64,000 nt of DNA from contig CAWEUH010000059.1 in the NCBI GenBank assembly GCA_963811985.1, positions 21,989-85,988 of the forward strand, given 5' to 3'. Shown here in pieces: positions 11,166 to 60,007 of this stretch. Position 1 is the first letter of the stretch, and each line of letters opens with the position of its first letter. The translations under genes were made by a program, and so were the position numbers. This DNA is from an uncultured delta proteobacterium (GTDB lineage: Bacteria > Myxococcota_A > Polyangia > Polyangiales > Polyangiaceae). A model generated the notes under the pieces. The model saw only the letters and a program-made list of their open reading frames with translations, searched no databases and was not told where the DNA came from.

Positions 11166-11588
11166 ATGGGACGACGAGGGCTATTGGTGAAGTCCGCTGC
11201 GGGTTTGGACGAGGTTCGGGCACGAATCGAGCATTGGCGTAAGACGCGACACAGTCGTGGCAGGATGCCGGCCGAATTGTGGGAGGCAGCCGCAATGCTG
11301 GCGCGTTCGCACGGGATCTATGCTGTGTCGCAGCACCTGCACGTGAGCTACGACTCGTTGAAGGCCCAAGTACGCGGCGCGGCCAGGGCAAAGGCGAAGA
11401 TCGTCAAAGGGCGAGTCGCACCGCAATTCGTCGAGCTTGGGCCGCTTGGGCGCCCGGCATCGGTGCTGGACGGGACAGTCATGGAGCTGGTGGGGGTAAG
11501 TGGAAACCGATTGATCGTGCGAGTGGCCGGTGCAGCTAGCACCGATGTCGTGGCCCTCGTCCGAGAACTGTACGGGAGAATGTCGTGA
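11166..11588 (+). CDS. tnpA: IS66 Orf1 (TnpA-like) protein
   Basis: 140 aa and helix-rich. It sits first in a three-gene IS66 arrangement and overlaps tnpB by 4 nt. Confidence 0.8.
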   Translation: MGRRGLLVKSAAGLDEVRARIEHWRKTRHSRGRMPAELWEAAAMLARSHGIYAVSQHLHVSYDSLKAQVRGAARAKAKIVKGRVAPQFVELGPLGRPASVLDGTVMELVGVSGNRLIVRVAGAASTDVVALVRELYGRMS

Positions 11589-11947
11589 TCCAAGTCACGC
11601 CCCAGATGCGAATATTGGTGGCCATCGAACCCGTCGATTTTCGAGCCGGGATCGACGGCATCGCGCGGATGTGTCGCGAACGCATGCGGGCAGATCCATT
11701 CTCGGGCACAGCGTACGTATTTCGCAACGGCCGGAGTACGGCGATTAAGGTCCTAGTATACGATGGGCAGGGTTATTGGCTGTGTCACAAGCGATTGTCG
11801 AGCGGGAAATTTCGCTATTGGCCGACAAGTGAGGGCAAAGGCGCGGCGCGGCTGGCGGCACATCAGCTGCAGGTGCTGCTATTCGGAGGAGACGCGATGG
11901 CAGCCAAGGCGGCACCGCAGTGGCGCCCCGTGAGCCCGGAGAACTGA
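11585..11947 (+). CDS. tnpB: IS66 Orf2 (TnpB-like) protein
   Basis: IS66 Orf2 signature (VDFRAGIDGIARMCRE...YVFRNGRSTAIKVLVYDGQGYWLCHKRLSSGKFRYWP). Confidence 0.85.
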   Translation: MIQVTPQMRILVAIEPVDFRAGIDGIARMCRERMRADPFSGTAYVFRNGRSTAIKVLVYDGQGYWLCHKRLSSGKFRYWPTSEGKGAARLAAHQLQVLLFGGDAMAAKAAPQWRPVSPEN

Positions 11948-11984
11948 AGGAAAGTCGATTTTCGTTCTTGCGTTCCATGGGCTG

Positions 11985-12875
11985 TTGTGGCAGACACGGC
12001 TCATGGCCGAAGTTCTGCGACACCGAGGGCGCATCGTCAGCGATACGGACGTGGCGTTTATCTGTGAGCTCATCGCTCGAGAGCCGCAGGCGACGCGACG
12101 GCAGCTGAGCAAGTTGCTATGCGAAGCCTGGGACATGCGACAACCCAACGGGGCGTTGCGGGATATGGTGTGTCGCGGTTTGATGCTGGCGTTAGATCGA
12201 GCCGGGCATATCCAGTTGCCACCGGTCAGTAGACGACCCCCGAATCCATTTCTTACGCGGGCCCGGCCTGAGCGGGTCGAGGTGGACGAGAGCCCGATCG
12301 AGTGCAGTCTGAGCGAGCTAGGAGAAGTGAGCCTGCGCGAGGTGCGGCGGACCGACGAGGAGAAATTCTGCTGCAGTCTGATCGAGACGTACCATTATCT
12401 CAAGTACACGCAGCCAGTCGGCGAGCACCTCAAGTACCTGGTGTACGCGCAGAATCGACCGATAGCATGCTTTACCTGGTCGTCAGTTCCAAGACATCTG
12501 AAACCCCGTGACCGCTACATCGGGTGGTGCTTGGCAAAGCAGCGACAGAATCTGCGGCTGCTTGCGTACAACAGCCGATTTCTCATTGTGCCATGGGTCA
12601 AGGTGCCGCACTTGGCGTCCCATCTATTGGGGAAAGTGACGCGAACGCTGTCTGGGGATTGGCAGCGCAAGTACAACCATCCGATCTACTTCGTCGAGAC
12701 GTTTGTGGACCCCGAGCGCAACCGCGGAACTTGTTATCGGGCTGCCAACTGGGTGCCGCTGGGCATCACGACCGGACGCGGCAAGGATGCGCCAACCTGG
12801 GAACAGAATCGGAGCAAGAAGCTGGTGTTGGGGTTGGCATTGGTGCGTGACTTTCGTGAGCGGTTGGCAAAGTAG
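11985..12875 (+). CDS. accessory/passenger ORF carried inside the IS66 element (296 aa, unknown function)
   Basis: Intact ORF between tnpB and tnpC that ends 2 nt before tnpC. Composition is protein-like. It is not part of the minimal IS66 set. Confidence 0.55.
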   Translation: MWQTRLMAEVLRHRGRIVSDTDVAFICELIAREPQATRRQLSKLLCEAWDMRQPNGALRDMVCRGLMLALDRAGHIQLPPVSRRPPNPFLTRARPERVEVDESPIECSLSELGEVSLREVRRTDEEKFCCSLIETYHYLKYTQPVGEHLKYLVYAQNRPIACFTWSSVPRHLKPRDRYIGWCLAKQRQNLRLLAYNSRFLIVPWVKVPHLASHLLGKVTRTLSGDWQRKYNHPIYFVETFVDPERNRGTCYRAANWVPLGITTGRGKDAPTWEQNRSKKLVLGLALVRDFRERLAK

Positions 12876-12877
12876 TC

Positions 12878-14527
12878 ATGACTGGACTGCCACAACGTGT
12901 AGAACTCGACCTCGACGAACTCAAGCGTATCGTGGCGAAAGACACGTTGAGCGCAGCTGATCGCGAAAAGCTGCTCTGTGCGGTCGAGACACTGGCGTTT
13001 GTAACGCAGGCTCTGGAAAACAAGAGCATCTCGCTCGGGCGCATGAGAAAGATGTTGTTCGGGGCCAGCACGGAGAAGATGAGTCAAGTATGCGTGCAGA
13101 GCGAACCGGCCGCATCCGACGCTTCGACAAGCGCGGACACAGAAAACGAAGCGCTCGCAAACAGCGCTGCTGGCGAAACGCGCAGCGAGGAACAAGCGAA
13201 GCCCAAGCGCAAAGGTCACGGCCGCAACGGTGCCGACCGCTACCGCGGCGCTCAACACATCCCCGTGCATCACGCATTGTGTCCCGGCGACGGCTGTCCG
13301 CTGTGTCACGCGGGCAAGGTTTACCCGATGGCGGTGCCGCGCAAACTGGTGCGCCTCACGGGGCAAGCGCCGATCATTGCAAAGGTCTGGGAGCTGGAAC
13401 GTTTGCGTTGCAATGCCTGCGGGGAGGTGTTTACCGCGCAAGCGCCCGATGATGTTGGCCCTGATAAGTATGATGCGTCAGCCTCGGCCATGGTTGCGAT
13501 TGCCAAGTACGGTACAGGACTGCCCTTTTATCGACTTGCAGGGCTCGAGCAAGGGATGGGGATCCCACTGCCGCCAGCAACGCAATGGCAAGTGGTGACG
13601 GCGCGCATCACGGCTCCCCAGGCCGTGCACGGTGAACTGATTCGAATCGCAGCGCAGGGACAGGTGCTGCACAATGATGACACGGGGGCAAAGATATTGG
13701 CGCTCATGAAGGAGGGCAAAAAGGCTGTCGCGACGGACGATGCCGCGAACAGCGACAAGCGCAGTGGAATCTTCACTTCCGGCATTGTTGCCCTGCACGA
13801 CGATTGTCGTATCGCTTTGTACTTCACGGGTCATCAGCACGCTGGAGAAAATCTCGCCGACGTGCTCAGGCTTCGTCCAACGACGCTGGGGGCGCCCATT
13901 CACATGTGCGATGCTCTGTCACGCAACTTGCCCAAGGACTTCGAGACCATCCTGGTACATTGCATGGCCCACTGCCGACGCAACTTCGTGGATGTCTTCG
14001 ATAACTTCAAGACAGAGTGCCGCCATGTCCTGGAAGTGTTGCGCGACGTGTATCACAACGACGCGATTGCCCGCGAGCGCAACCTGTCCGCTGAGCAACG
14101 CCTTGCTTGGCATCAAGCCGAGAGCAAGCACTTGATGGACGGCCTGGAAAAGTGGCTCGAGGCTCAGTTGAAAGAAAAGAAGGTCGAGCCCAATAGCGGG
14201 CTCGGACAAGCCATCAAGTATATGCAGAAGCACTGGCATGCGCTCACGCAGTTTCTTCGTGTTCCAGGGGCGCCATTGGACAACAACGTGTGCGAGCAAA
14301 TCTTGAAAAAAGCCATTCTGCATCGCAAGAACGCCTACTTTTTCAAGACTCAGCGAGGAGCCGAAGTCGGTGACATCTACATGAGCCTCATCCGTACCGC
14401 CGAGCTCAGCGGCATAAGCCCTTTTAACTATCTGTGTGCGTTGATGCTGAATACCGAACGGGTCATCGCGCGTCCCCACGACTGGCTGCCCTGGAATTAT
14501 CACTTGGTGCTTATACCCACCGTGTGA
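12878..14527 (+). CDS. tnpC: IS66-family transposase TnpC (zinc-finger + DDE)
   Basis: CxxC...CxxC zinc-ribbon (CPGDGCPLCHAG...CNACGEV), a DDE core, and the conserved C-terminal region of IS66 transposases. Confidence 0.9.
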   Translation: MTGLPQRVELDLDELKRIVAKDTLSAADREKLLCAVETLAFVTQALENKSISLGRMRKMLFGASTEKMSQVCVQSEPAASDASTSADTENEALANSAAGETRSEEQAKPKRKGHGRNGADRYRGAQHIPVHHALCPGDGCPLCHAGKVYPMAVPRKLVRLTGQAPIIAKVWELERLRCNACGEVFTAQAPDDVGPDKYDASASAMVAIAKYGTGLPFYRLAGLEQGMGIPLPPATQWQVVTARITAPQAVHGELIRIAAQGQVLHNDDTGAKILALMKEGKKAVATDDAANSDKRSGIFTSGIVALHDDCRIALYFTGHQHAGENLADVLRLRPTTLGAPIHMCDALSRNLPKDFETILVHCMAHCRRNFVDVFDNFKTECRHVLEVLRDVYHNDAIARERNLSAEQRLAWHQAESKHLMDGLEKWLEAQLKEKKVEPNSGLGQAIKYMQKHWHALTQFLRVPGAPLDNNVCEQILKKAILHRKNAYFFKTQRGAEVGDIYMSLIRTAELSGISPFNYLCALMLNTERVIARPHDWLPWNYHLVLIPTV

Positions 14528-33192: not shown

Positions 33193-33584
33193 CCTCGCGT
33201 TGAGCAGTTTCTTGGGGTGGTTCACAAGGCGGCGCAACCAATGCGCTGCGTGTGACGAGTTGAATTTGCTTGCTGGAGACGCGCGGCATCTTCGATGAGC
33301 CAGGTTGACTCGGTGAGGTCAGCCGGGGCGCGCGGTCAACTCGCGTGCTTCCGTTGACGCAAAAAAATTCCTGGTACAAATTTCGTCGCCTAGGAATCAA
33401 CATTATTGCACCAAAAATCCCGGTGTTTTCACCCTGCGATCGGCAACCTCAATGTTAATGGGAATCCCAGTAGTCGGCGAAGCCATACTTATGGTGCCAA
33501 CTTGGCACGTCGGTGACCCATGCCTTGCCGCTACCCAAGCTACCTGCTCGTCCGTTGCGACACCTTTGACGTTTCTGTTGTTTT

Positions 33585-33612
33585 GGTCGTTTGGGTCCCG
33601 GCCCAAACGACC
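33585..33612. repeat. hairpin GGTCGTTTGGG-TCCCGG-CCCAAACGACC (11-bp perfect stem); its second copy is at 57611-57638
   Basis: Identical stem arms occur at both loci, with loops TCCCGG here and TTGGGG at the second. Both copies are intergenic. Confidence 0.55.
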
Positions 33613-33735
33613 GCGTTCCCGAAACGTGACTCAAGATCGACGAGTTTTTCGCTTTTCGCTCGCTAAGCTTGTGCCATAAGTCGTGGTGCGCTACCTCCAA
33701 GGCTCGTTGTTTTTCACCTAGCAGCGCGGTTATTC

Positions 33736-43038: not shown

Positions 43039-44093
43039 TTGTCTCCAAGCTCGCAGCCAATTCGCGATGCGCTGTGGGAACGTCCCCATGCATTCTTGCC
43101 TGTGGTGGGCTCCGGGTTGTCGCGGCCTTGGCTCAAGTCTTGGGTCGAACTACTGGACCTGCTTGCTGCCGAATTGCCGCCGGACATGCAGAAGGAAGTC
43201 GCGAGCGAGATGGCAGCGCAGCGCTATCTGAATGTCGCGTCTGTCCTTGAGAGTACGTGCCCGGTGGGCGTTCGCGAGTGTAGTCGATTATCCAGCAACT
43301 TTACCAGCGTCCGAAGAGGCTGCGGCCGGCAGTTTACGATGCGTTGGTAAAGTTGCCAATCGAGCAATACGTCACTACCAACTACGACCCTTGGCTCAAG
43401 TGCGCTCTGCCGATGGCGCCCTGGTAACACTCCGCGAATCTACGCGCCACGCTTCAGGGTAGCTTTCCCGATACGCTCGCAGGTACTGCGCCGCTCGTAC
43501 TCATGGTGCACGGTGACGCTGACGAGCCCAGTACTTGTGTACTGAGCATGCGTGGCTATCGCAATTTGCTTTACGGTGCGCAGGCCTGGCGGGAAGGCAT
43601 GAAGCAACTGGTTGGGCAGCGAAAGCTTCTGTTCTTTGGGCATTCGCTTGCGGATCCGGACCTGACTGCGCTGCTCGATGAATGGCAGGCCGTGTTTGCG
43701 CCGAATAGTGGCCCGCCTCGACACTACCTATTCGGCGCGGGCATCTCTATCGTACGGCGGGAGCTCTTGATGGATCGCGGCGTCGAGCCCATCGACCACA
43801 ACGACCACGCGCTGCTACCCGAGATACTCGAATACCTCGTCAAACCCCCTGCCGGTCACGTGGCGGCGGTTGCCAGCGGCGTGCAAGCGGATATCCAAAA
43901 GTACTTAGTTCGCCTGATTGACGACACTCGCTATATTGACATTCAAGGGATTGGCACGCGGCATGGCCAGGGCAAAACCGCGCTCAGCTACCCGATTGAG
44001 GAGCTTTACACGCCGCTTCGCACGCGCGCCGGGCGCGACAGCGCGGGCACGCCGGGGCTCGAGTGCTTGGCTGAGCCCGCGATGAACTCGTGA
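43039..44093 (+). pseudogene. SIR2-like (defence-type SIR2_2) domain gene split into three frame segments by a frameshift (~43284) and an in-frame TAA (43425-43427)
   Basis: Segment 1 (frame 1): AFLPVVGSGLSRPWLKSWVELLDLLA, the GxGxS NAD-site start. Segment 2 (frame 0): RLRPAVYDALVKLPIEQYVTTNYDPWLK-TAA. Segment 3 (frame 0): APLVLMVHGD...LLFFGHSLADPDLTALLDEW. Together these make one SIR2-family domain. Confidence 0.7.
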
Positions 44094-44105
44094 GTCTCAT
44101 CGGAC

Positions 44106-46251
44106 GTGTTGCCCGGACATCGGCTGCTGTTGATTCAGGGCCAACCGGGAGCGGGCAAGACGACATTCTTACGGCTCGTGGCCTGCATGTTGGCCCGCGA
44201 CGCGCTCGGCATACCCGATCCTGAAGGCCAAGCCTGGGCTCAGCGAGTCTTGGGGCTCGAACCGGTCACGCCCGCGCCGACGCCCATCTTCCTGCGTGCG
44301 TCCCTGCTGGTGCTCCTGTTGAAAGCAATGCCATGCCCGCACGCCTTTGACCGCAGCGCGCTTGCGGCGTTCATCGAGCAGCTTTGCTGCGTGAATGACA
44401 GCGCGGTTCCCAGGCGCCATTGGGAGAAACTCCTCGAATCCGGGCAAGCACAATTGCTGCTCGACGGCGTCGATGAAGTCGCCGATCCTGAGTTGCGCAA
44501 CCGGCTTTTCGATTCGCTGCGCGACGCGGTTCGTCATTGGCCGTGCCCGGTCATCGTCAGCAGTCGCCCGCTTGAGACCGAGCGGCTTCTTGATATTGGG
44601 TTTTTTGGCGTCACGGTGGAGCCATTTCGGCGGCAAGAAATCGAAACCTTCGTGGGGCGTTGGGTCAAAGGCCTGCGCGCCACCGAAGACTTGGCGTTCA
44701 TCTCCGACAAAGCCGGACGCCATCGCACTGAGCTCGTCTCGGCCATTTTGCAGAGTCCGCAGATCCGCAGGCTTGCGGAAAACCCGGTCATGCTCACGTG
44801 CCTGTGCGTCGTGCACTTCAATGAAGGCAAGTTGCCGGACGGGCGCGCGCGCCTGTACAGCGCTGTCATGGAATGGCTCCTGAAGGCGCGAACCGAACGC
44901 CGCAAAGCAGCCGGCTACGGCGACGAGTTTGCGCGGCGCGCCTTTGCGCGCCTGGCGCTCGGCATGATGACCACAGCGCAAGGCAAGCGCAGCAGTAGCA
45001 GTTTCGGCGAGGCAACCCGCCTGCTATGCGCGGACTTGAAACGGCAGTTTCCCGATGAAGCTGAAGACCAAATCGGACGCACCGGCGAGCTATGGCTACA
45101 ATTCGAATGCGAGGCGAGCGGCATCATTCAAGAGCTGCCCGGGCGGCAACTGCGGTTCTGGCACTTGACGTTTCAAGAATACCTGGCAGCCCTTCAACTC
45201 AGTTGGCAATCATCCAGCAGCGACGGATGGTGGACAGACATCGTGAGCCAACACCTGCAAGACGCGCAATGGCGCGAGACCATCGAGGTGTTACCCGGTT
45301 GCCTGCTTGACGGACCGGGAATCGACTCGGTCGATGACTTGCTCAATCGGGTTGTGGCGCTCCTAGGCACGCGCGATGACTTGCCGAGCCAAGCGCGCCT
45401 AGCCGCGGTGCTGTCGCGCTTGCTCTTGCCGCTCAATGTGTACGAGTACAAGGTGCCACCCAGAATCAAGGCGGTATACGATGCGGCGCTCGAACGCTCG
45501 ATGGCGATATTCACGCTCGAGGGTGCCCGGCAGGTGCCCGTGAAAACTCGCATCGAAGTTGCCGAGGCGCTGGGGCGCGCCGGAGATCCGCGCCTGACGC
45601 CGGACAAAGACAATTTCATTTTGGTGCCGGGCACATCCGTGAGCCTGGGCAAATACCCCGTAACCGTCGAGGAATACCAGCGCTTCGTGGACGCGCGCGG
45701 CTACGAGCAGAGCAAGTATTGGTCGCCAGAGGCTTGGGCCGCGAAGACCGAGGCCCAATGGGTTGCACCCGGCGAATGGGAGCATCAGCTCCGCGCTCCG
45801 AATTGCCCCGTGGTAAACGTGTGCTTGGTATGAGGCGCAGGCCCATTGCGCCTGGCAGAGTGATCACCTAGGGCGAGCCATTCGACTGCCTACGGAACAG
45901 GAATGGCAAGCGGCGGCTGCCGCAGAAAAGGGCGAATACCCCTGGGGCGAACCAGAGCCCAACGAGGAGCTAGCCAACTTTGCGCCGAATTTCAAACCCA
46001 ACGTCGGACATCCAACACCCGTGGGCATCTACCCTGCAGGCAACGGTCGACATGGTCACTGCGACTTGGCGGGCAACGCACTCGAATGGTGCGAAGACTT
46101 GTACGACAGCAATGACGCAGGCCTCGTGCGTGTCGTTCGGGGTGGCGGTTGGTACGGCAACGCCCAGCTCTGTCGCTCTGCCTTCCGCGTCAGGGGGCAA
46201 TCGTCGCTCCACGCTGGTAACCTCGGTTTCCGTCTTGCCGCAGGTCAGTGA
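44106..46251 (+). CDS. NACHT/STAND NTPase with a C-terminal FGE-sulfatase (FGS) domain, frameshifted (+1 T) at ~45826. Starts 12 nt after an in-frame TGA that separates it from the SIR2 segments
   Basis: Walker A GQPGAGKTTFL at residues 11-21. Walker B LLLDGVDEV. The C-terminal FGS domain in frame 0 (YEQSKYWSPEAWAAKTE...NCPVVNVC) continues in frame 1 (WYEAQAHCAW...RLPTEQEW...YPWG...GNALEWCEDLYD...RVVRGGGWY...GFRLA) up to the stop at 46251. Confidence 0.75.
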
Positions 46252-46340
46252 GCAAGGGGCGCAGGATTGCGCCGTGGAAGGACCAAGGGCCGTCGTCGGC
46301 GGCGCGACGAGGGACGAGGAGCGCAAGCAAACGACGGCGT
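46240..46340. repeat. ~100-bp imperfect direct repeat, copy 1; copy 2 is at 47049..47147. Together they flank the DUF433/DUF5615 module
   Basis: Shared blocks are GGGGCGCAGG(G)ATTGC(G/A)CC, ...TGGAAGGA..., ...GGCGGCG...GCGCGA(CGA)GGGACGAGG(A/G)GCG(C/T)AAGCA...GCGGCG. Each copy begins immediately after a stop codon (46251, 47036) and contains a short GC hairpin. Confidence 0.55.
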
Positions 46341-46437
46341 TGTTTGTGAGCAGTGAGCAGTGTGCAGGGGCAGCGCAAAAAGGGTTGCCATCCGCGTCGT
46401 GTTGCAGCGTGCCAGATAGCGGACTATCCTAGGGGTC

Positions 46438-46674
46438 ATGGCCTACTTGGTGTCGCGCATCTCGGTAGATCCGCAGATTTGCGGGGGGCAACCGTGCGTG
46501 CGCGGGTTACGAATTCCCGTATCGGTGGTGCTGAAGTACCTGGCGGCAGGAAAATCAACAGCGGATATCATCGACGAGCTTCCTGAACTCGAGGCAGAGG
46601 ATATCAACGATTGTCTCCGATACGCTGCCTGGCTGGCGTCAGGTCGCTCAATCGTACTGCCACCGGCTGCGTAA
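46438..46674 (+). CDS. DUF433-domain protein (antitoxin-like partner of DUF5615)
   Basis: DUF433 signature (PCVRGLRIPVSVVLKYLAAGKSTADII...NDCLRYAAW). Its stop overlaps the next start (TAATG). Confidence 0.8.
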   Translation: MAYLVSRISVDPQICGGQPCVRGLRIPVSVVLKYLAAGKSTADIIDELPELEAEDINDCLRYAAWLASGRSIVLPPAA

Positions 46675-47036
46675 TGAAGTACATCGCAGACGTAAACGTA
46701 TCTCGCAGGGTTGTTGAAAGCCTGAGAGCCTTGGGGTTTGACATAATCCGGGTGACGGAACTCCTTGATGCAAGGTCATCAGACCAAACGATTCTCTCGG
46801 AGGCAGCCAGACTCCACGCGGTTTTAATCAGTCACGACCACTTCGGTGCACTGCTTGCCATCACCGGCGCGACGTCACCTTCATTTGTCAATCTCCGTCT
46901 GTCCGAAGTTGACGCGACCCGGCTGGCGGCGAGCATTGAGCAGGTGCTCCGAGCAACGCATGAAGAGCTCTCTTCAGGCGCGGTGGTCACGTTGGACGAC
47001 AACGGCGTCCGTGTGCACCTCTTGCCATTAGCTTGA
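46674..47036 (+). CDS. DUF5615 (PIN-like) domain protein, toxin-like partner of DUF433
   Basis: MKYIADVNVSRRVVESLRALGFDIIRVTELL... is typical of DUF5615. The ATG overlaps the upstream stop by 1 nt. Confidence 0.8.
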   Translation: MKYIADVNVSRRVVESLRALGFDIIRVTELLDARSSDQTILSEAARLHAVLISHDHFGALLAITGATSPSFVNLRLSEVDATRLAASIEQVLRATHEELSSGAVVTLDDNGVRVHLLPLA

Positions 47037-47048
47037 TGCCACTCGACT

Positions 47049-47147
47049 GAAGTCAGGGGCGCAGGGATTGCACCCTGGAAGGAAGGGTCAGAAGCCGGCG
47101 GCGGTGGCGCGAGGGACGAGGGGCGTAAGCAGACTGCAGCGGCGCCA
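47049..47147. repeat. copy 2 of the ~100-bp direct repeat flanking the DUF433/DUF5615 module
   Basis: ~75-80% identical to 46240..46340. Starts right after the DUF5615 stop codon. Confidence 0.55.
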
Positions 47148-47494
47148 CGGATCCAGACTTTGAAGTTACACAACTGTGCTTTGAAGTTGCACAACCGTCC
47201 CGCGAAGCTTCGTTTTCCAATTCGGAAGCTCCGTTGCCGACTTTCGAAGCGCTGCACCGGGTTTTGAGTCGAAACCTCGCGAAAATCGGGTTCAGCAAGA
47301 GTGGAATCTGGCTCTTGGCGAATGGACCAGGCTATTTCTAGCGGGATCCAAGCGCTGGGCGCCGGGAAAGGACCTTCAAAACCCGGCGCGAAGGTTCTGT
47401 TGACTCGCACTCCCGTTCCAGCCCGGGGGGTGTCAGAATTTCCGTGTAATTTGACTTGGACAGACTACCGAACCTGACACCCCGAAACCGATTA

Positions 47495-48577
47495 ATGCGA
47501 TCACCGATTCCAATTCTCGGAGTGGTTTGTGCCACGGGATGGTCGTGTTCACGGGAACGCAATCCCACCCCAGCCTCGACGTTTTCGAGCACGACGAAGA
47601 CTCTCCCTTCCGCAACTGAACTGAGTAACCGCAAAGGTGATGCCGCAGCTCTCAGTGCAAGTGCTCGCCAGGCCTCGAGTGAAACGGACTTGGGCAAGAC
47701 GGCCGAGCCGAACGTATCTCACCTTCGCGCAGCACTTCTTGCCTCAGATACGAGGAAATTCGCTTCACTACTGACGTATCCAGTACAGGTGAACACGGGT
47801 TCACTCTGCACGGCATCCATCCCGAACGCAAAAGCATTCATCGCCAACTTCAATCAGATTGTTCGGGGCAAAGGGGAAACTGCACTCAGGTCAACGGACC
47901 CGGATTACTTCGCTACCTGGCAAGGCATTACTTTGGGAAATGGAAGCGTGTGGTTTGACGCGTTTGGCGACGGGGGAGTCACTCTATCCGTATTCAACTC
48001 CGACGCATGGCGCATTGGCGCCTTCCCCTGCGACGGAGAACCGGAGCAAGCCCCGCCAAAATGGATTGCCGGGACGTGGCGAGTTACCTCGGTCGCAATC
48101 CTTCAGGGTGGACAACTCATTCCGAAATCCCCAACCACTTGGATTGGCAAAAGCATCGACATTGACATGCGGACGCGGAAAGCCAACGTAAGTCTGCGAG
48201 AAGGCTCCGCCCGCGAGTGCTCAGTCGGCAGGCATGCTAGTCGCCGTTTCGAAAACGCCCGGGAAATGGGTGCTTCGTTTGCGGGTCTGTCTCTTGACAA
48301 GAGCAGTGGCTTTCTCGATCTTGAGTGCAGCGAGGCGGGTGAGCGTTACGTCGAACGCATAGACATAATCGACAAGACGGCACTAGCAGTTGTGGGTGAT
48401 GACAGGTATCTGCTGGTGCTCAGGCGCGAGGCGCGTACGGCAGCGAAGTCCATGGGGTTGTTGAAACCCGATGAACCGTGCGGACAATTCAATGATCAAT
48501 GCTCGATTGGTTACGTTTGTACAGCGTCGCGAAATGGCGAAGGCAAGCTACTCGAATCATGCCGCGAGATCGACTGA
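47495..48577 (+). CDS. hypothetical lipoprotein
   Basis: Lipobox MRSPIPILGVVCATGWSC. A 360-aa soluble domain with no recognised family. Confidence 0.55.
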   Translation: MRSPIPILGVVCATGWSCSRERNPTPASTFSSTTKTLPSATELSNRKGDAAALSASARQASSETDLGKTAEPNVSHLRAALLASDTRKFASLLTYPVQVNTGSLCTASIPNAKAFIANFNQIVRGKGETALRSTDPDYFATWQGITLGNGSVWFDAFGDGGVTLSVFNSDAWRIGAFPCDGEPEQAPPKWIAGTWRVTSVAILQGGQLIPKSPTTWIGKSIDIDMRTRKANVSLREGSARECSVGRHASRRFENAREMGASFAGLSLDKSSGFLDLECSEAGERYVERIDIIDKTALAVVGDDRYLLVLRREARTAAKSMGLLKPDEPCGQFNDQCSIGYVCTASRNGEGKLLESCREID

Positions 48578-51049: not shown

Positions 51050-51068
51050 GGGACTGCCCGATTATACA

Positions 51069-51182
51069 CCACACAACCCTCCACGCCCGCCCCGCACCAC
51101 TCCCCGCGCGACCCTTTGACCCTGCCCCCTGCACACTGCACCTCGATCTCCAGTCGCGCAGGGAACCTGCAGTGCCGTCGCG
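51069..51182. repeat. copy 1 of a ~115-bp C-rich repeat (CACCACAC(A/G)ACCCTCC...TGCACACTGCAC...AGTCGCGCAG...TGCAGTGCCGT); copy 2 is at 55557..55668
   Basis: ~75% identity over ~115 bp by manual alignment. Copy 1 lies just upstream of the RCC1 gene start. Copy 2 lies just downstream of the beta-helix gene stop. Confidence 0.45.
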
Positions 51183-52291: not shown

Positions 52292-52303
52292 GGGCGCCAT
52301 AAA

Positions 52304-52403
52304 GCGCTTGCAGTTGGCGGCTAGGCCTTCTTATGGGTCTGTCTCAGCGGCGGCAGTGGCTACGCCACAACTATACTGCCGCCGCTGGTTGCTGCGTTAT
52401 GAT
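52304..52403. repeat. copy A of a ~100-bp conserved element (second copy at 54947..55046), containing a 12-bp perfect inverted repeat AGCGGCGGCAGT / ACTGCCGCCGCT
   Basis: Shared blocks are CGCTTGCAGTTGGCGGCT, a ~41-nt variable segment of equal length, GGCAGTGGCT.CGC.ACAA.T.TACTGCCGCCGC and TGCGTTATGATG. In copy B the stem carries a U-G-compatible change. Confidence 0.5.
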
Positions 52404-52547
52404 GATATCCACTCGACAACCGAGGATCGCTACTTTGCGCTGGGACGCACGAACCCAGGGCGGCAATCGAGGTCAGAGTGTAGCGTGCAGTGGCGTCACC
52501 CGGTTCACTTCTGCAACGCCAAATTGGTCACCGTCAGGCTCGCCAAT

Positions 52548-52790
52548 TCACGGCTGCAACGTCGAATTGGTCACCGTAGCGCTCAGTGCATTGATCCCAA
52601 ATGCCGACCCAAGGTTCGTCACGCTCCCCTGTTGCAACTGAGTCCAATGTCCGCCCGTATTGCCGGTAATCGTCGTATCCCGAATCGTAATGGTGCCGGT
52701 CCAGTCGTTGCTGGTCATGAACACGCCGCCGCCGAAGGCGTTGGTGCCCGCAGCATTTCCGGTGCTTTGGTGCCCCCAGTGTGTGGGAGT
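52548..52790 (-). pseudogene. 3'-terminal fragment paralogous to the C-terminus of the beta-helix protein gene at 55674..57269
   Basis: It encodes ...SNDWTGTITIRDTTITGNTGGHWTQLQQGSVTNLGSAFGINALSATVTNSTLQP, near-identical to the last ~65 aa of the 55674 gene. It has no upstream N-terminal or central region. Confidence 0.6.
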
Positions 52791-53086
52791 TGATTGACGG
52801 CCGCGGGTGCTCGCTTCGCTGCGCGCCCGCGCGGCCCCCCAAATCTGTGCTCGCTCCGCTTTGCTCCGCTGCGCAGATGGGGGAGCCTCACCAACTTGGC
52901 GGCAATCTGCGAGTTTCGACCGGTCGAGCCGCATGTACCGATCTGCCACGCGAGCGGAGTTCTTCACGTGTGATTGTGCGAGGCAACTCGAGACCCAGCA
53001 AATCAGCCGGTCTCCGCTTGGCAGCGCAACCATCGCGCCATGCGCCGGCGAGGCACGATGGTCCCGGCTAGCGCCTGTCACGCTGC

Positions 53087-53545
53087 TTGCGCAATGGGTC
53101 GCGAAGCCCAGCTGATTTGCTGGGCCCCGGAGGTGCCAAGTCAGCTCAATCACGCAAACATTCGAAGACTCAAGCGCTCCTAGCCGAGCGTGCCTACGTT
53201 TTGCGGTGCAACCCTACCCGCTCGGAGCAGGTTCTCTGGCAAGAACTTCGCGCTAATCGGTTTGGAATTGCCTTTCGCCGGCAAGTGCCAATCGGCGGCA
53301 AGTACATTGCAGACTTCCTAGCCCCGTCAATCCGGCTGGTCATGGAAGTGGATGGCGGCGTTCATCGTCAGCGGCGTATTGCTGACGCCAGGCGTGATAG
53401 GAATATGAGGCGCCTGGGGTATTATGTCCTTCGTTTGGATGCGGAGGTTGTGCTCCGGAATTTGCCCGTTGCGGTCGAAATTGTTCGGGTGGCTGCCGCA
53501 GGGGCGGCACGGTCAGAACGGCTCGGCAATTGCCCGTCGCCGTGA
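53087..53545 (+). CDS. DUF559 domain protein (Vsr-like endonuclease fold)
   Basis: SEQVLWQELRANRFGIAFRRQVPIGGKYIADFLAPSIRLVMEVDGGVHRQ... is the DUF559 signature. Confidence 0.7.
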   Translation: MRNGSRSPADLLGPGGAKSAQSRKHSKTQALLAERAYVLRCNPTRSEQVLWQELRANRFGIAFRRQVPIGGKYIADFLAPSIRLVMEVDGGVHRQRRIADARRDRNMRRLGYYVLRLDAEVVLRNLPVAVEIVRVAAAGAARSERLGNCPSP

Positions 53546-54839: not shown

Positions 54840-54946
54840 GCGTCATTATAAGCTATTAGCTTACATCGTCAAGTCACGCGGTGGACCGTGCCTACGGTTC
54901 CGGGAGAGCGCTCTTCCGAAGCTATGGCGCAGAGCCGCCCAACAAA

Positions 54947-55046
54947 CGCTTGCAGTTGGCGGCTTTGCCTGCTGGGGGGTCGTGGTCGTCGGTGGCAGTG
55001 GCTTCGCAACAATTGTACTGCCGCCGCCTGCTCTTGCGTTATGATG
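54947..55046. repeat. copy B of the ~100-bp conserved element (see 52304..52403)
   Basis: ~75% identical to copy A, with a conserved stem-loop and the conserved terminal TGCGTTATGATG. Confidence 0.5.
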
Positions 55047-55114: not shown

Positions 55115-55402
55115 TCACCGCTTACCCTCCACCAACCGCACCAAGGTGCCCGTGATGCGATTGACCCGATTGAGCGTCGAGCCGTCAAGCGCATGAACGT
55201 AACCAAAGGCCTGAGCCACCTCCAAACAGGAAAAACTCTCCCGCATGGAGCCAAGAGCGGAGTGGTAGCGGGCTGTGCGCAGCTCACCGCGGGAATACAT
55301 GCCTTCGGCCAAGTTCAAGGCGACGCTGCTGGAAGCGCGGCGCAGTTGCCGCCCGAGATCACGGTCACGACGCTCAACTTGAGCCAGCAAGGGCCGTAGC
55401 AC
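55115..55402 (-). CDS. four-helix-bundle protein (TIGR02436-like, '23S rRNA intervening-sequence protein' family)
   Basis: RQLRRASSSVALNLAEGMYSRGELRTARYHSALGSMRESFSCLEVAQAFGYV is characteristic of this family. Confidence 0.75.
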   Translation of the reverse strand: MLRPLLAQVERRDRDLGRQLRRASSSVALNLAEGMYSRGELRTARYHSALGSMRESFSCLEVAQAFGYVHALDGSTLNRVNRITGTLVRLVEGKR

Positions 55403-55467
55403 GCTGGTAGACTGGACAACGACGAGCAGAGGCAGGTCGCAAACTCGAAGTGACGACGAGAATTGTG

Positions 55468-55635
55468 GTCAGCGTGCAGAGTGCAGAGTGCAGCGTCAGG
55501 GTGGCACGGGTTGGGTGTTGTGGGGCGGGCATGGGGTGGAACGCGGGGCGTGACTCACCACACGACCCTCCCCACACAAGCCGCGCCACCCCCCACACGA
55601 CCCTCTGACGTTGCACACTGCACTCTGCACGCTGA
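55468..55635. repeat. large imperfect palindrome: 31-bp arms (55468-55498 and 55605-55635, 29/31 complementary) around a ~106-bp G-rich/C-rich spacer
   Basis: The left arm is TCAGCGTGCAGAGTGCAGAGTGCAGCGTCAG. The reverse complement of the right arm is TCAGCGTGCAGAGTGCAGTGTGCAACGTCAG. The right arm belongs to the 55557..55668 repeat copy. Confidence 0.5.
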
Positions 55636-55668
55636 TCTCAGTCGCGCAGCGACTTTGCAGTGCCGTTA
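55557..55668. repeat. copy 2 of the C-rich ~115-bp repeat (see 51069..51182)
   Basis: Manual alignment gives ~75% identity. Confidence 0.45.
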
Positions 55669-55673
55669 CCCGG

Positions 55674-57269
55674 CTACTTCTGCAATGTCGAGTTAACCAC
55701 GGTGGCACTTAGCGCATTGATCCCAAACGCGCTTCCAAGGTTCGTGACGCTGCCCTGTTGCAGTTGAGTCCAAGATCCGCCGGTGTTGCCCGTGATCGTC
55801 GTATCCCGAATCGTGATCGTGCCGGTCCAGTCGTTACTCGTCATGAACACGCCGCCGCCAAAGGCGTTGGTGCCCGCGGCGTTGCCAGTAATTGTGTCGC
55901 CACAAAGAATGATGTTTGTTGAGGAGCCGCCGTCTTGGTAAATGGCGCCGCCGTTGCCTCCGGAGCCGATTTCATTTTGGCCGTTGTTGATGACGGAGCA
56001 TTGCGTTGCGTCGTCGTTGTTGGCGTCATGCCCGGTGGCTTTGTTGTTTTGAAAGACACTGTTGTAGATGTCAAGTTCGGCGAAGAGGCCCCCGAGGGCA
56101 CCGGCGTTGGCGGCTTGGTTGCTGGTGAACGTGCTGCCGACAATGAGGGCACCGTGCTTGCTGCCAAGGATGTAGATGGCGCCGCCACCCGTGTCGGGCC
56201 CGAGAAGCGCGGCCTGGTTGTTCGAAAATGTGCAGTCGATGACCGTGAGGTTGCCATCGCGCATGTAAAGGGCTCCGCCCTCTCCGTCGTCGTAGCCTTG
56301 GGAGCACGGTGCGGGCGCCGTGGGAATCGCCTCTGTGGGCGTGGTCTTGCCGTTGACAAGCGTCAGATGTTGCAGGGTGACGCGTGTCTCGGTCGCCATG
56401 AAGTTGGCGCTGTTGTAGTTTAGAATCTGAACGCTCCCGCCGCCGTCGAGTGTGATCAAGTTGCCGCCGTCAATCACCGTGTTCTTGGTCGTCGGCAGAT
56501 TCATCGTCGCCGTTATTGCGATGGTTTTTGGTGCCGTGCCGCAGTTGAATGTGATGATGCCGCCCTTGGTCACGGCCGTGTTGAGCGAGCTGAATGTGCA
56601 ACTGTCCGCGGTTCCCGTACCAATCACAGACGTTGGGCTGGATACGTCAACCAGGGCGGCGCCTGCCGGCAAGGCAATCGAGCATTGGCCGGGGCTTGAA
56701 GAACCCGCCGTGCCGGTTGCGCCCCCTGTCGAAGACTTGCCTCCGGTCGTTTGAGTGCCGCCCGTCGCGTTCGCGCCCGCCGCCGCGGACTTGCCTCCGG
56801 TCGCTTGCGTGCCGCCCGTTGTATTCGCGCCCCCCGTCGCGGACTTGCCTCCAGTCGCATTCGCTCCGCCCGTCGATGGCTTGCCGCCCGCGGCATTAGC
56901 GCCACCGGTGCCAGACTTGGAGCCGCCGGTGGCATTAGCGCCGCCGGTGCCTGCGCCGCCTAGGCCTGCCTGGCCTCCAGTTGCCGCGTTGCCACCTGTG
57001 TCAGCGATCGAAGTCGTTGACGAGCTGCCACCCGTCGCTTCAGCGCCCCCTGTCGTACCTGACGAAGTCCCGCCCGTGTCGCCTGTGCTCGCGCCGCCCG
57101 TGTCACTGCCCACTGCGCTTGTGCCGCCCACTGCGCTTGTGCCGCCCACTGCGCTCGTTCCGCCCGCTGCGCCGGTGCCGGCGGGTGAGCCAGAACAGCC
57201 AGCCGTCAAGAGCAGTACTGCGAACGATACGGACCCGAGCTTTGGATGGACGGAGAGTGTGCTTTGCAT
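55674..57269 (-). CDS. secreted lipoprotein with a Gly/Thr/Ala-rich linker and a right-handed parallel beta-helix (pectate-lyase-like) domain
   Basis: Lipobox ...AVLLLTAGC. TGG/ATGG linker. Repeated NxxxGGxxxxxG and TITGN beta-helix rungs. Its C-terminus is duplicated at 52548..52790. Confidence 0.7.
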   Translation of the reverse strand: MQSTLSVHPKLGSVSFAVLLLTAGCSGSPAGTGAAGGTSAVGGTSAVGGTSAVGSDTGGASTGDTGGTSSGTTGGAEATGGSSSTTSIADTGGNAATGGQAGLGGAGTGGANATGGSKSGTGGANAAGGKPSTGGANATGGKSATGGANTTGGTQATGGKSAAAGANATGGTQTTGGKSSTGGATGTAGSSSPGQCSIALPAGAALVDVSSPTSVIGTGTADSCTFSSLNTAVTKGGIITFNCGTAPKTIAITATMNLPTTKNTVIDGGNLITLDGGGSVQILNYNSANFMATETRVTLQHLTLVNGKTTPTEAIPTAPAPCSQGYDDGEGGALYMRDGNLTVIDCTFSNNQAALLGPDTGGGAIYILGSKHGALIVGSTFTSNQAANAGALGGLFAELDIYNSVFQNNKATGHDANNDDATQCSVINNGQNEIGSGGNGGAIYQDGGSSTNIILCGDTITGNAAGTNAFGGGVFMTSNDWTGTITIRDTTITGNTGGSWTQLQQGSVTNLGSAFGINALSATVVNSTLQK

Positions 57270-57610
57270 GGTTCTCAAATGACCCCCCATCCGAGCAGAC
57301 GGCTCACTCAGGGCGCGTTCAGCCTGAAAAGCCCCGCGTTTCCGTGCCGCCGTGCCAAAAAGCAACCGGGGGCGCGCCACTGAAAACGATGTCGCACCGA
57401 GCCAGCACTTGGAATCGCTGGCATGGCCGGATGCGAATCGACGAGGTCGCGTCGATTTGGCGATCGGGCCTGCAGGGTTGCGGTTGATCGAATCCGTTGC
57501 GTCGCCACACGTGGCACTGACGTAATCGTTGATGCGGCGTTGAAGTATCGTATGTTCGCGCCGTGGCTAGCGACCCTAACGCACGAGACTTGTCGATCTC
57601 GAGACGAGCT

Positions 57611-57638
57611 ATGGATACGCGGTCGTTTGGGTTGGGGC
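57611..57638. repeat. second copy of the hairpin GGTCGTTTGGG-N6-CCCAAACGACC
   Basis: See 33585..33612. Intergenic, upstream of the Cys-rich lipoprotein gene. Confidence 0.55.
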
Positions 57639-57757
57639 CCAAACGACCAACGCAATCAAGAAAATCCCGGATCAACGTGCAGTCGCGCGAAATCCTTGGC
57701 AGTTTGGCACCTGTTTCGGGCACGCAGGCGGGTACAGGCTCAGACACAGCACGCACG

Positions 57758-59689: not shown

Positions 59690-60007
59690 TCAAACCTTCC
59701 GGGGCTTTGAAGCTTCGGTCCCACCAGGTCTCGCTTTGCCCGGAACGGATAGAATTTCTACATTGTACTTCACCAATCGTTGCTTCATCACCCTTTGCGA
59801 TAGCGGATTGTTGTCAACGAGGATGAAACTACGATTGAGCTTTGCACATGCCTCGCCGACCGTGCCGCTGCCGGCGAAGAAGTCGAGGACCGTCTCGCCG
59901 GGGTTGCTGTGCACTCGCACGATGCGTTCGATGATGCCGAGCGGTTTCTGCGTTGGGTAACCGGTCTTCTCTTTGCCCGTCGGGCTCACGATCGTGTGCC
60001 ACCACAT
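59690..60007 (-). pseudogene. C-terminal fragment of a beta-class N6-adenine/N4-cytosine DNA methyltransferase; the N-terminal catalytic half (DPPY) is missing and the break coincides with the low-GC junction
   Basis: TQKPLGIIERIVRVHSNPGETVLDFFAGSGTVGEA is the C-terminal AdoMet-binding region of PF01555-type methyltransferases. The ORF begins abruptly at 60007, where GC content collapses. Confidence 0.7.

Follow-up and report, generated by a model that had tools for sequence, protein, structure and literature searches.

Toxin–antitoxin (TA) cassettes with attC repeats of ~120 nt on either side are typical of chromosomal integrons; in Vibrio, they lie between VCR repeats, which are attC sites. 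Direct repeats also delimit integrative islands, which copy the 3′ end of their target, a tRNA or another gene, to give attL and attR. Further, accessory and defence islands carry local segmental duplications. In COG2442–PIN modules, a predicted TA family (Makarova, Wolf & Koonin, 2009; PMC2701414), the antitoxin gene precedes the toxin gene and its stop codon overlaps the toxin's start codon.

Here we analyse a stretch of bacterial DNA of 64 kb (the window), in which a DUF433/DUF5615 gene pair is bracketed by two imperfect direct repeats. The pair shares the gene order and the stop/start overlap of the COG2442–PIN modules, with a 78-aa DUF433 DNA-binding protein followed by a 120-aa PIN-like protein (DUF5615/PIN_10); as in that family, both genes are under purifying selection and occur in unrelated genomic contexts. 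In contrast, the putative toxin of the window is one codon short in its DQDF motif. The locus resembles an integron cassette in being a small TA unit with imperfect direct repeats of ~80–120 nt and ~75–80% mutual identity, the downstream one of which lies shortly past the last stop. Unlike such cassettes, it shows neither R″/R′ cores nor a conserved hairpin, forms no array and has no integron integrase among the scanned ORFs, and the closest relative of the module, at the locus L020, has no repeat. Similarly, imperfect direct repeats of tens to ~100 nt around acquired DNA, one copy being the target's own and the other brought in or duplicated, recall attL/attR islands, whereas the insert here is 0.7 kb long and encodes no integrase, the window holds no tRNA, tmRNA or Rfam RNA, and no identical crossover core stands out. 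Local segmental duplication is matched by non-coding pairs of 77–79% identity and a truncated paralogue at 43–58 kb, although at the TA locus the duplicated stretch is very short and its copies lie precisely on either side of one mobile module. Overall, the locus is fairly ordinary; the repeats resemble a local duplication that remained at an insertion site more than they do a family of recombination sites or an RNA element.

A compact DUF433–DUF5615 operon

The two small, adjacent and co-oriented genes match the COG2442/DUF433 antitoxin and DUF5615 toxin families above the Pfam cut-offs, which bears out the TA-like module named in a preliminary description of this DNA. The antitoxin gene (46438–46674, + strand) matches PF04255 with E = 1.8e-24 and 85.7 bits, and the toxin gene (46674–47036, + strand) matches PF18480 with E = 7.6e-17 and 61.6 bits. 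The toxin ATG overlaps the antitoxin TAA by 1 nt (TAATG, 46672–46676). Compared with L020, dN/dS is 0.06 for the antitoxin gene, and the TA genes give a dS of 0.79 with a dN/dS of 0.11. In an alignment of 17 sequences, the invariant toxin residues D6, D37 and D55 are all present. Of 16 homologues, 15 have the second aspartate of the DQDF motif; the window toxin has lost it through a deletion that leaves SHDH-FG. Because one codon of this near-invariant motif is lost, the activity of the window toxin is uncertain.

Upstream of the antitoxin gene, 46398–46437 (+ strand) is the presumed TA promoter/operator. The blastn homology to L020 begins at 46398, and the MAFFT alignment gives GTTGCAGsGTGCC..ATAGCGGAyTATC as common to both loci; weaker similarity may extend back to ~46368. 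A tandem heptamer, (GTGAGCA)x3, occupies 46346–46367 (TRF: period 7, 3.1 copies) and fills the gap between the upstream repeat and the start of the L020 homology. A possible third, partial copy of the repeat at ~46357–46376 (CAGTGAGCA..AGGGGC..GCGCA) is marginal (p ~0.04) and was left out of the evidence.

Diverged copies of one non-coding sequence flank the operon

The presence of ~100-bp imperfect direct repeats around the TA module is confirmed. By blastn, nhmmer and Smith–Waterman alignment, the core of copy 1 spans 46255–46332 and that of copy 2 spans 47055–47134, both on the + strand, with weaker extensions to 46252–46345 and 47051–47149 that correspond to the envelopes of a two-sequence nhmmer profile scanned over the window. 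The cores are 75.9% identical over 83 blastn columns (E = 5e-10 when the unit serves as the query, 3e-7 in a self-comparison of the whole window), and identity falls to 65% once the alignment spans the full ~100 columns. When the 300 nt upstream of the TA module are aligned to the 300 nt downstream, the Smith–Waterman score is 68, compared to 19.4 ± 2.6 for shuffled sequences, none of which (0/200) reaches this value (z ~18). In addition, a 21-nt core is seen twice versus 0.02 occurrences expected. Part of the match consists of low-complexity CGGCGGCGG, which would suit a chance similarity of two GC-rich intergenic stretches that contain GGC repeats; the alignment statistics effectively refute this explanation. 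The repeats are real, diverged copies, ~80–95 bases long, of one non-coding sequence.

Differences between the copies are spread evenly (runs test z = −1.07). Identical runs reach at most 12 nt, a length attained in 60% of permutations and thus expected by chance at 77% identity, and five gap events fall within 84 aligned columns. Consequently, the copies look like unconstrained DNA. A coding remnant was rejected, given single-base indels between the copies and no frame conserved on inspection. The genes that flank copy 1 and copy 2 are unrelated to one another; thus, the repeat is not a piece of duplicated flanking genes, a possibility raised beforehand. Both copies had been described as starting right after a stop codon, which holds for copy 1, 3 nt past the stop of the FGE-sulfatase ORF (46249–46251), but not for copy 2, 18 nt past the DUF5615 stop (47034–47036).

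The shared blocks do not form a conserved fold

The blocks GGGGCGCAGG(G)ATTGC, TGGAAGGA and CGAGGGACGAGGRGCGYAAGCA are found in both copies as originally described. The short hairpin attributed to the first of them exists in copy 1, where GGCGCA-GGAT-TGCGCC pairs over 6 bp, but is broken on the + strand of copy 2 by a C.A mismatch; read as RNA, the − strand would have a G.U pair here. Copy 1 folds better than its shuffles (z = −2.8 on the + strand, −4.1 on the − strand), whereas copy 2 does not (z = 0.0 and −0.8, respectively). The two copies form their long stems in different registers, and the RNAalifold consensus comprises 13–15 short pairs, with 1 of 15 compensatory. Thus, RNA structure prediction yields no fold that is conserved between the copies. 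Rfam gives no match across the whole window at gathering thresholds or within 45800–47600 at E ≤ 10, no tRNA or tmRNA is found in the window, and neither copy contains a terminator-like site. The copies have no terminal inverted repeats or conserved palindrome, and the ends of the insert have no inverted repeats. A sigma-54 promoter reading of GGGGCGCAGGGATTGCA in copy 2 was discarded, as such matches occur at background frequency (45 found versus 40 expected).

The repeats do not match the mobile-element boundaries considered

A regex scan finds no pair of attC R″ (RYYYAAC) and R′ (GTTRRRY) sites overlapping either copy, and copy 2 (47050–47150) contains neither AAC nor GTT. Among 59 ORFs from across the window, Pfam scans detect no integrase or other tyrosine or serine recombinase, which answers the search for a nearby integrase in the negative for these ORFs; the only transposases among them are IS1182/IS5-like and IS66 DDE enzymes at 2.8–14.5 kb. 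Several further classes were considered and rejected. The target-site duplication of a transposon measures 2–15 bp and abuts the terminal inverted repeats of an insert that encodes a transposase. The repeats here are ~80–95 nt long, and the insert encodes the TA pair only, with no inverted repeats at its ends. For attL/attR of an integrative element, the insert encodes no integrase, the window supplies no tRNA or tmRNA, and no identical run exceeds 12 nt. FGE-sulfatase and C-type-lectin C-termini are common targets of diversity-generating retroelements (DGRs), and the gene upstream of copy 1 ends in such a domain. In a DGR, mismatches are limited to adenines of one copy, the variable repeat sits within the 3′ end of the target ORF, and a reverse transcriptase lies nearby. 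A template/variable pair is rejected here, as the mismatches are of several kinds (A>G 6, T>C 4, C>T 3, G>A 3, plus others), the window contains the 3′ coding region of the FGE domain only once, and the repeat is not part of the ORF. The scanned ORFs include no reverse transcriptase.

The repeat has two copies in the window

In the nhmmer profile scan, the 64-kb window yields no third copy, and nothing else scores better than E = 6. REP, BIME and MITE families have many copies per genome; this repeat has two in the window, with chance matches only in the scans of sequence collections. Neither the genome nor the metagenome scan returned the source locus itself. The scans covered two core motifs of the repeat and accept exact matches of 19–23 nt, so that most family members of ~76% identity would be missed. 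Across the genome collection (596 Gb), the 21-mer of core B has seven matches, all of 21–22 nt only and all judged to be chance; one of them sits in a long ORF that we read as a PNPase gene. Core A has a single match across metagenome contigs, likewise put down to chance, in a stretch of lower GC content judged coding by eye, and across viral contigs cores A and B return chance matches or none. A blastn comparison of the locus with plasmids gives no match. The possibility that the unit flanks other small gene cassettes is not supported in the window or these collections. Within the same scope, the repeat is unique to its two positions and shows no structural conservation, a combination named in advance as speaking against the cassette idea.

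An unoccupied counterpart of the site was sought through the 360-aa gene downstream of copy 2, and none was found; the best homologues of this gene are 48–54% identical, lie on contigs of 2–3 kb and are not syntenic. The homologue at locus L026 shows neither synteny nor the repeat. This outcome indicated that relatives close enough for their non-coding DNA to be compared are lacking.

A related operon lies in another context and lacks the repeats

The module's closest relative, L020, has 80.6% DNA identity to it. The homology covers only 46398–47033, that is, the operator/promoter and both genes, and the flanks of L020 are unrelated to the window. The repeat is absent from the L020 flanks examined (~160 nt upstream, ~790 nt downstream), and neither L020 nor five other DUF5615 contexts have flanking repeats of their own (Smith–Waterman scores of 16–23 versus shuffle means of 17.5–19.6). 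In the window, the breakpoints of the L020 homology fall just inside the repeats, within ~18–65 nt of them. As the flanks of L020 are unrelated and carry no repeat, the mobile unit appears to end inside the repeats, which would then belong to the recipient site. These comparisons support the TA pair as a self-contained, horizontally acquired module that has moved. Of the suspected mobile cassette, the discrete and mobile module therefore stands, whereas the repeats as its recombination sites do not. Moreover, the Jukes–Cantor distance between the copies (0.29) is lower than the dS of the TA genes (0.79), and a duplication after the split from L020 is thus chronologically consistent. A contig that encodes P0020, a DUF433 protein of at least 90% identity, carries a serine recombinase gene.

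The operon follows a disrupted gene in an island of duplicates

The ORF upstream of copy 1 (45826–46251, + strand) is the C-terminal portion, with the FGE-sulfatase domain, of a SIR2_2/NACHT/FGE gene that has been disrupted (PF03781, E = 1.1e-27, profile positions 98–254). Direct reading of the sequence places a +1 frameshift near 45825. Because the gene is a pseudogene, selection would not maintain an element that serves it.

At least three other families of non-coding repeats, 60–110 nt long and with two or three copies at 77–79% identity, occur in the window. Most have their copies clustered within 43–58 kb, in the same decaying accessory island, where TA, defence-related and further accessory genes abound. 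Examples are the duplicates 52302–52404/54944–55046 and 51067–51178/55556–55666, each 77.7% identical. The island also holds a truncated paralogue, 52554–52763/55680–55889 (83.8%). As these duplicates are of similar age to the TA repeat, short local duplication seems to be common here.

Origin of the repeats

The reading that we favour, which we hold tentatively and at slightly below even confidence, is a locus-specific junction duplication around the inserted TA module. A compact type II DUF433–DUF5615 operon, consisting of ~40–70 nt of its own promoter/operator and two overlapping genes, would have inserted into non-coding DNA just downstream of the decaying SIR2/NACHT/FGE gene. The repeats would be a duplication of the recipient non-coding DNA, made as a long junction duplication at insertion; alternatively, a short local duplication may have come first and the TA module landed in it. 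Both copies would afterwards have drifted apart without constraint, and they would not serve the TA module, as it brings its own regulatory region. Both the link of the duplication to the insertion and the way in which it arose are inferences on our part. Against a junction duplication, a target duplication of ~90 nt far exceeds those of classical transposition, and the missing empty site among the 48–54% identical downstream-gene homologues offers no help. The start of copy 1 only 3 nt past a stop codon is also somewhat unexpected and fits a gene-end-associated element better.

Such an element, functioning in 3′-UTR stability or termination, as a small RNA or as a protein-binding site behind both the FGE gene and the operon, would account for the positions of both copies, 3–18 nt past a stop and co-oriented with the upstream gene, for the folding of copy 1 on either strand and for the first small hairpin, which is kept on the − strand through a C–G to U.G change. 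We nevertheless consider it distinctly improbable: copy 2 folds like its shuffles and its sigma-54-like match is at background, the stems are out of register with a single compensatory pair, terminator and Rfam matches are lacking, substitutions and indels run evenly through the copies with no protected core visible, and the gene upstream of copy 1 is a pseudogene. The 3′-UTR elements of the preliminary description also find no counterpart in L020 or the five other DUF5615 contexts. Recombination sites, either attC-like or attL/attR of a small non-autonomous element served by a recombinase encoded elsewhere, are improbable as well. The cassette-like geometry (site, promoter and ORFs, then a site 18 nt past the last stop) speaks for them, as do the mobility of the module over evolutionary time-scales evident from L020, the ~120-nt attC repeats of TA cassettes in chromosomal integrons and the serine recombinase gene on the P0020 contig. 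They are opposed by the missing RYYYAAC...GTTRRRY pair, the lack of a hairpin common to both copies, the presence of two sites rather than an array, the absence of an integrase or recombinase among the scanned window ORFs, an identical core no longer than chance, and an L020 module without such a site in its examined flanks.

A dispersed family of short intergenic repeats (REP/MITE-like), with the TA module landing between two neighbouring members or captured by recombination between them, is unlikely, if still plausible. The other non-coding families of the window and the placement of both copies just past stop codons and co-oriented with the upstream gene agree with it. In contrast, only two copies occur in 64 kb, and these lie 800 bp apart; most of the window families cluster at 43–58 kb, which points to local duplication instead of genome-wide dispersal; terminal inverted repeats and a conserved palindrome are missing; and the genome (596 Gb) and metagenome scans returned chance core matches only, a weak argument since they register exact matches. 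More far-reaching is a reading of the 43–58 kb island as a cassette system that works without an integrase or is served by a distant one. Here, several unrelated families of ~100-nt sites, namely the TA repeat and the two 77.7% identical non-coding pairs, would act as exchange points at which TA pairs and small accessory genes are swapped. It would constitute a non-attC analogue of integron cassette arrays, probably in a myxobacterial genome, and if the ~90-nt unit and the other families were reusable insertion or exchange sites, a new cassette-type mobility outside integrons. We regard this as very doubtful, and nothing in this analysis supports reusable exchange sites.

If the junction duplication is correct, the locus is a tidy, unremarkable record of a selfish TA module that settled in an accessory island and then decayed. 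The signs of this decay would be the upstream pseudogene, the damaged toxin motif and the drifting flanking duplicate.

Imperfect direct repeats flank a DUF433/DUF5615 gene pair

The DUF433 gene (46438–46674; match 1.8e-24) overlaps the DUF5615/PIN_10 gene (46674–47036; match 7.6e-17) by one base, and COG2442/DUF433 proteins with PIN toxins form a predicted type II toxin–antitoxin (TA) family (PMC2701414) with many examples in Synechocystis (PMC4963859). By direct sequence reading, three blocks, GGGGCGCAGG(G)ATTGC, TGGAAGGA, and CGAGGGACGAGGRGCGYAAGCA, are common to two co-oriented non-coding copies on either side of the pair. Copy 1 starts 3 nt past the stop codon of the upstream ORF (46249–46251), copy 2 18 nt past that of DUF5615 (47034–47036). 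Blastn aligns 46255–46332 with 47055–47134 at 75.9% identity over 83 columns (E 5e-10; 3e-7 when the whole window is compared with itself), and a two-copy profile recovers both copies at E 1e-23 to 1e-24 (envelopes 46252–46345 and 47051–47149) and no further copy in the window, where the next best match has E=6. Smith–Waterman comparison of the 300 nt upstream with the 300 nt downstream of the TA pair scores 68 against 19.4±2.6 for shuffles, and a 21-nt core occurs twice where 0.02 occurrences are expected. On these statistics the repeat is real, confirming the imperfect direct repeats that the preliminary description had placed around the pair.

The gene preceding copy 1 (43503–46251), a disrupted SIR2_2/NACHT/FGE-sulfatase gene, is a pseudogene as judged from its sequence. 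Its SIR2_2 match lacks the start of the profile, beginning at position 46; the SIR2 and NACHT parts are separated by an in-frame stop (44091–44093) before the Walker A region; and a +1 frameshift near 45825 breaks the FGE domain inside the motif ..VVNV(C)/WYEAQAHCAW (slash, break). The FGE-type C-terminus raised the possibility of a DGR, which was rejected: differences between the copies are not confined to adenines, and no duplicate of the FGE 3′ region exists in the window. Directly 3′ of copy 2 lie tandem 21-nt units (CTTTGAAGTTRCACAAC; 47158–47207, possibly degenerate to ~47262); by eye, a GAAG motif recurs every ~21 nt over about five units 5′ of the downstream gene (47495–48577), whose 360-aa hypothetical product matches no Pfam family. 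The 21-nt units could be a protein-binding array.

The TA operon occurs elsewhere without the repeat

Two proteins cluster with the DUF433 protein at 90% identity or more. One is encoded on L020, the contig with the closest relative of the module; the other, P0020, comes from a contig that also encodes a serine recombinase, a PemK/MazE pair, and a 23S_rRNA_IVP protein. L020 matches the window at 80.6% identity over 46398–47033 only, a span that begins ~40 nt 5′ of the DUF433 start codon and closes at the stop codon of DUF5615; in the MAFFT alignment, similarity may weakly reach back to about 46368, and none is seen past the stop codon. Neither L020 flank resembles the window or contains the repeat. 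DUF5615 homologues at 57–67% identity (contigs L008–L019) lie in five different contexts, and these contigs lack the window's element as well as any other repeat around the gene. These comparisons mark the TA operon as a discrete unit moving between contexts and ending just inside both copies, and the repeats as a property of the window site.

The DUF433 antitoxins are under strong purifying selection (dN/dS 0.06). In the window's DUF5615, the near-invariant S[HF]DQDF motif is one codon short and reads SHDH-FG (120 aa in all, versus 121 aa in most aligned homologues), and an in-frame stop (DAR*SD) prematurely interrupts the L020 toxin gene (398–763); the two toxins may both have lost activity. 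In both close DUF433 relatives, a 23S_rRNA_IVP-type gene lies convergent immediately past the TA locus (945–1136, −, on L020); the window homologue (55115–55402, −) is 8 kb off. At the end of L020 (~1240–1552), ~17–20-nt units resembling CTGTGATCTGTCTCGGT repeat in tandem and then recur as the reverse complement (ACAGGAACAGGTCACAGG...); this may be an assembly artefact.

Origin of the repeat pair

The 84-column local alignment of the two copies contains 65 matches and 19 differences, placed as at random: the runs test on mismatches gives z = -1.07, and 60% of permutations contain an identical run at least as long as the observed maximum of 12. The alignment includes five gap events. The copies stand at a JC distance of 0.29, and comparison of the TA genes with those of L020 gives dS 0.79 and dN/dS 0.11. 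A duplicate made after the split from the L020 lineage and drifting since would look like this. Our leading, still tentative, reading is a locus-specific junction duplication: the TA module would have inserted, non-coding DNA at the site would have been duplicated around it, and the copies would since have drifted neutrally.

A dispersed repeat family in the source genome is unlikely. Rfam and tRNA searches gave no match, viral contigs and plasmids yielded nothing meaningful, and the 21-nt core was found in 596 Gb of species-representative genomes at seven loci, each matching just 21–22 nt (one within a long ORF that we take to be a PNPase gene). The first core had a single chance match in the metagenome collection, in a stretch judged coding. 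Such exact-core scans would overlook most members of a ~76%-identical family, and the source genome lies outside the genome and metagenome collections, since neither scan recovered the locus in the window itself. The preliminary description had likened the geometry to a gene cassette between recombination-site-like or 3′-UTR elements. Of this, the mobile module stands, given L020, but the copies are improbable as true recombination sites: they pass none of the attC and site tests run, are absent where the module is seen elsewhere, and have no conserved structure or protected core. No RYYYAAC...GTTRRRY pair overlaps either copy, copy 2 contains neither AAC nor GTT, and the suggested search for a nearby integrase found no integrase or recombinase in Pfam scans of 59 ORFs over the window. 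A gene-end RNA or protein-binding element is quite improbable, as the copies have neither a conserved structure nor a protected core. Against shuffled sequences, copy 1 is the more stable (z = -2.8, + strand; -4.1, − strand), unlike copy 2 (0.0 and -0.8). Their long stems differ in sequence and register, the RNAalifold consensus has 13–15 short pairs with one compensatory change, and neither copy holds a terminator-like or sigma-70-like site.

A sigma-54-like match in copy 2 was rejected, its frequency being that of background. Among the scanned ORFs of the window, transposases are limited to an IS1182/IS5-like DDE enzyme (2850–4439, −) and that of an IS66-family element (11166–14527; small ORFs 11166–11947, DruA-like (PF14236) ORF 11985–12875, IS66 transposase 12878–14527), both >30 kb from the TA locus.

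Other duplications in the accessory island

The disrupted SIR2/NACHT/FGE gene and the TA pair belong to an accessory island (43–60 kb) that also contains a DUF559 gene, the 23S_rRNA_IVP gene, a BrnT toxin paired with an MqsA-like antitoxin, and a PIN-domain (VapC-like) gene; a small ORF preceding this last gene overlaps its start codon and presumably encodes its antitoxin. A 105-aa ORF (59690–60007, −) aligns to the N6_N4 DNA methylase profile over its C-terminal third only (profile positions 144–213 of 221) and is probably another gene fragment in the island. The ORF at 52548–53153 (−) contains a copy of the last ~70 codons of a 568-aa Gly/Thr-repeat protein (55674–57380, −) at 83.8% DNA identity, and this truncated paralogue points to segmental duplication within the island. 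Further short non-coding duplicates in the window, similar in identity to the repeat around the TA pair, comprise a direct pair (52302–52404 and 54944–55046; ~103 nt, 77.7%), a pyrimidine-rich family (51067–51178 and 55556–55666; 112 nt, 77.7%) with an inverted partial copy (55474–55534), and an inverted pair (33583–33645 and 57588–57650; 63 nt, 79%), one copy of which lies outside the island. Together with the truncated paralogue, these duplicates indicate that short local duplication is frequent in this DNA.

The direct pair encloses 2.5 kb with the DUF559 gene, an unannotated ORF, and the BrnT/MqsA-like pair; its first copy starts about 10 nt past the stop (52291) of the VapC-like toxin gene, the second sits between brnT (−) and the 23S_rRNA_IVP gene (−), and both retain a 9–11-bp stem (GCGGCGGCAGT...ACTGCCGCCGC). 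One copy of the pyrimidine-rich family is paired with its neighbour in inverted orientation (arms 55464–55517 and 55587–55640), and each copy of the 63-nt pair holds a perfect 11-bp hairpin, GGTCGTTTGGG-N6-CCCAAACGACC.
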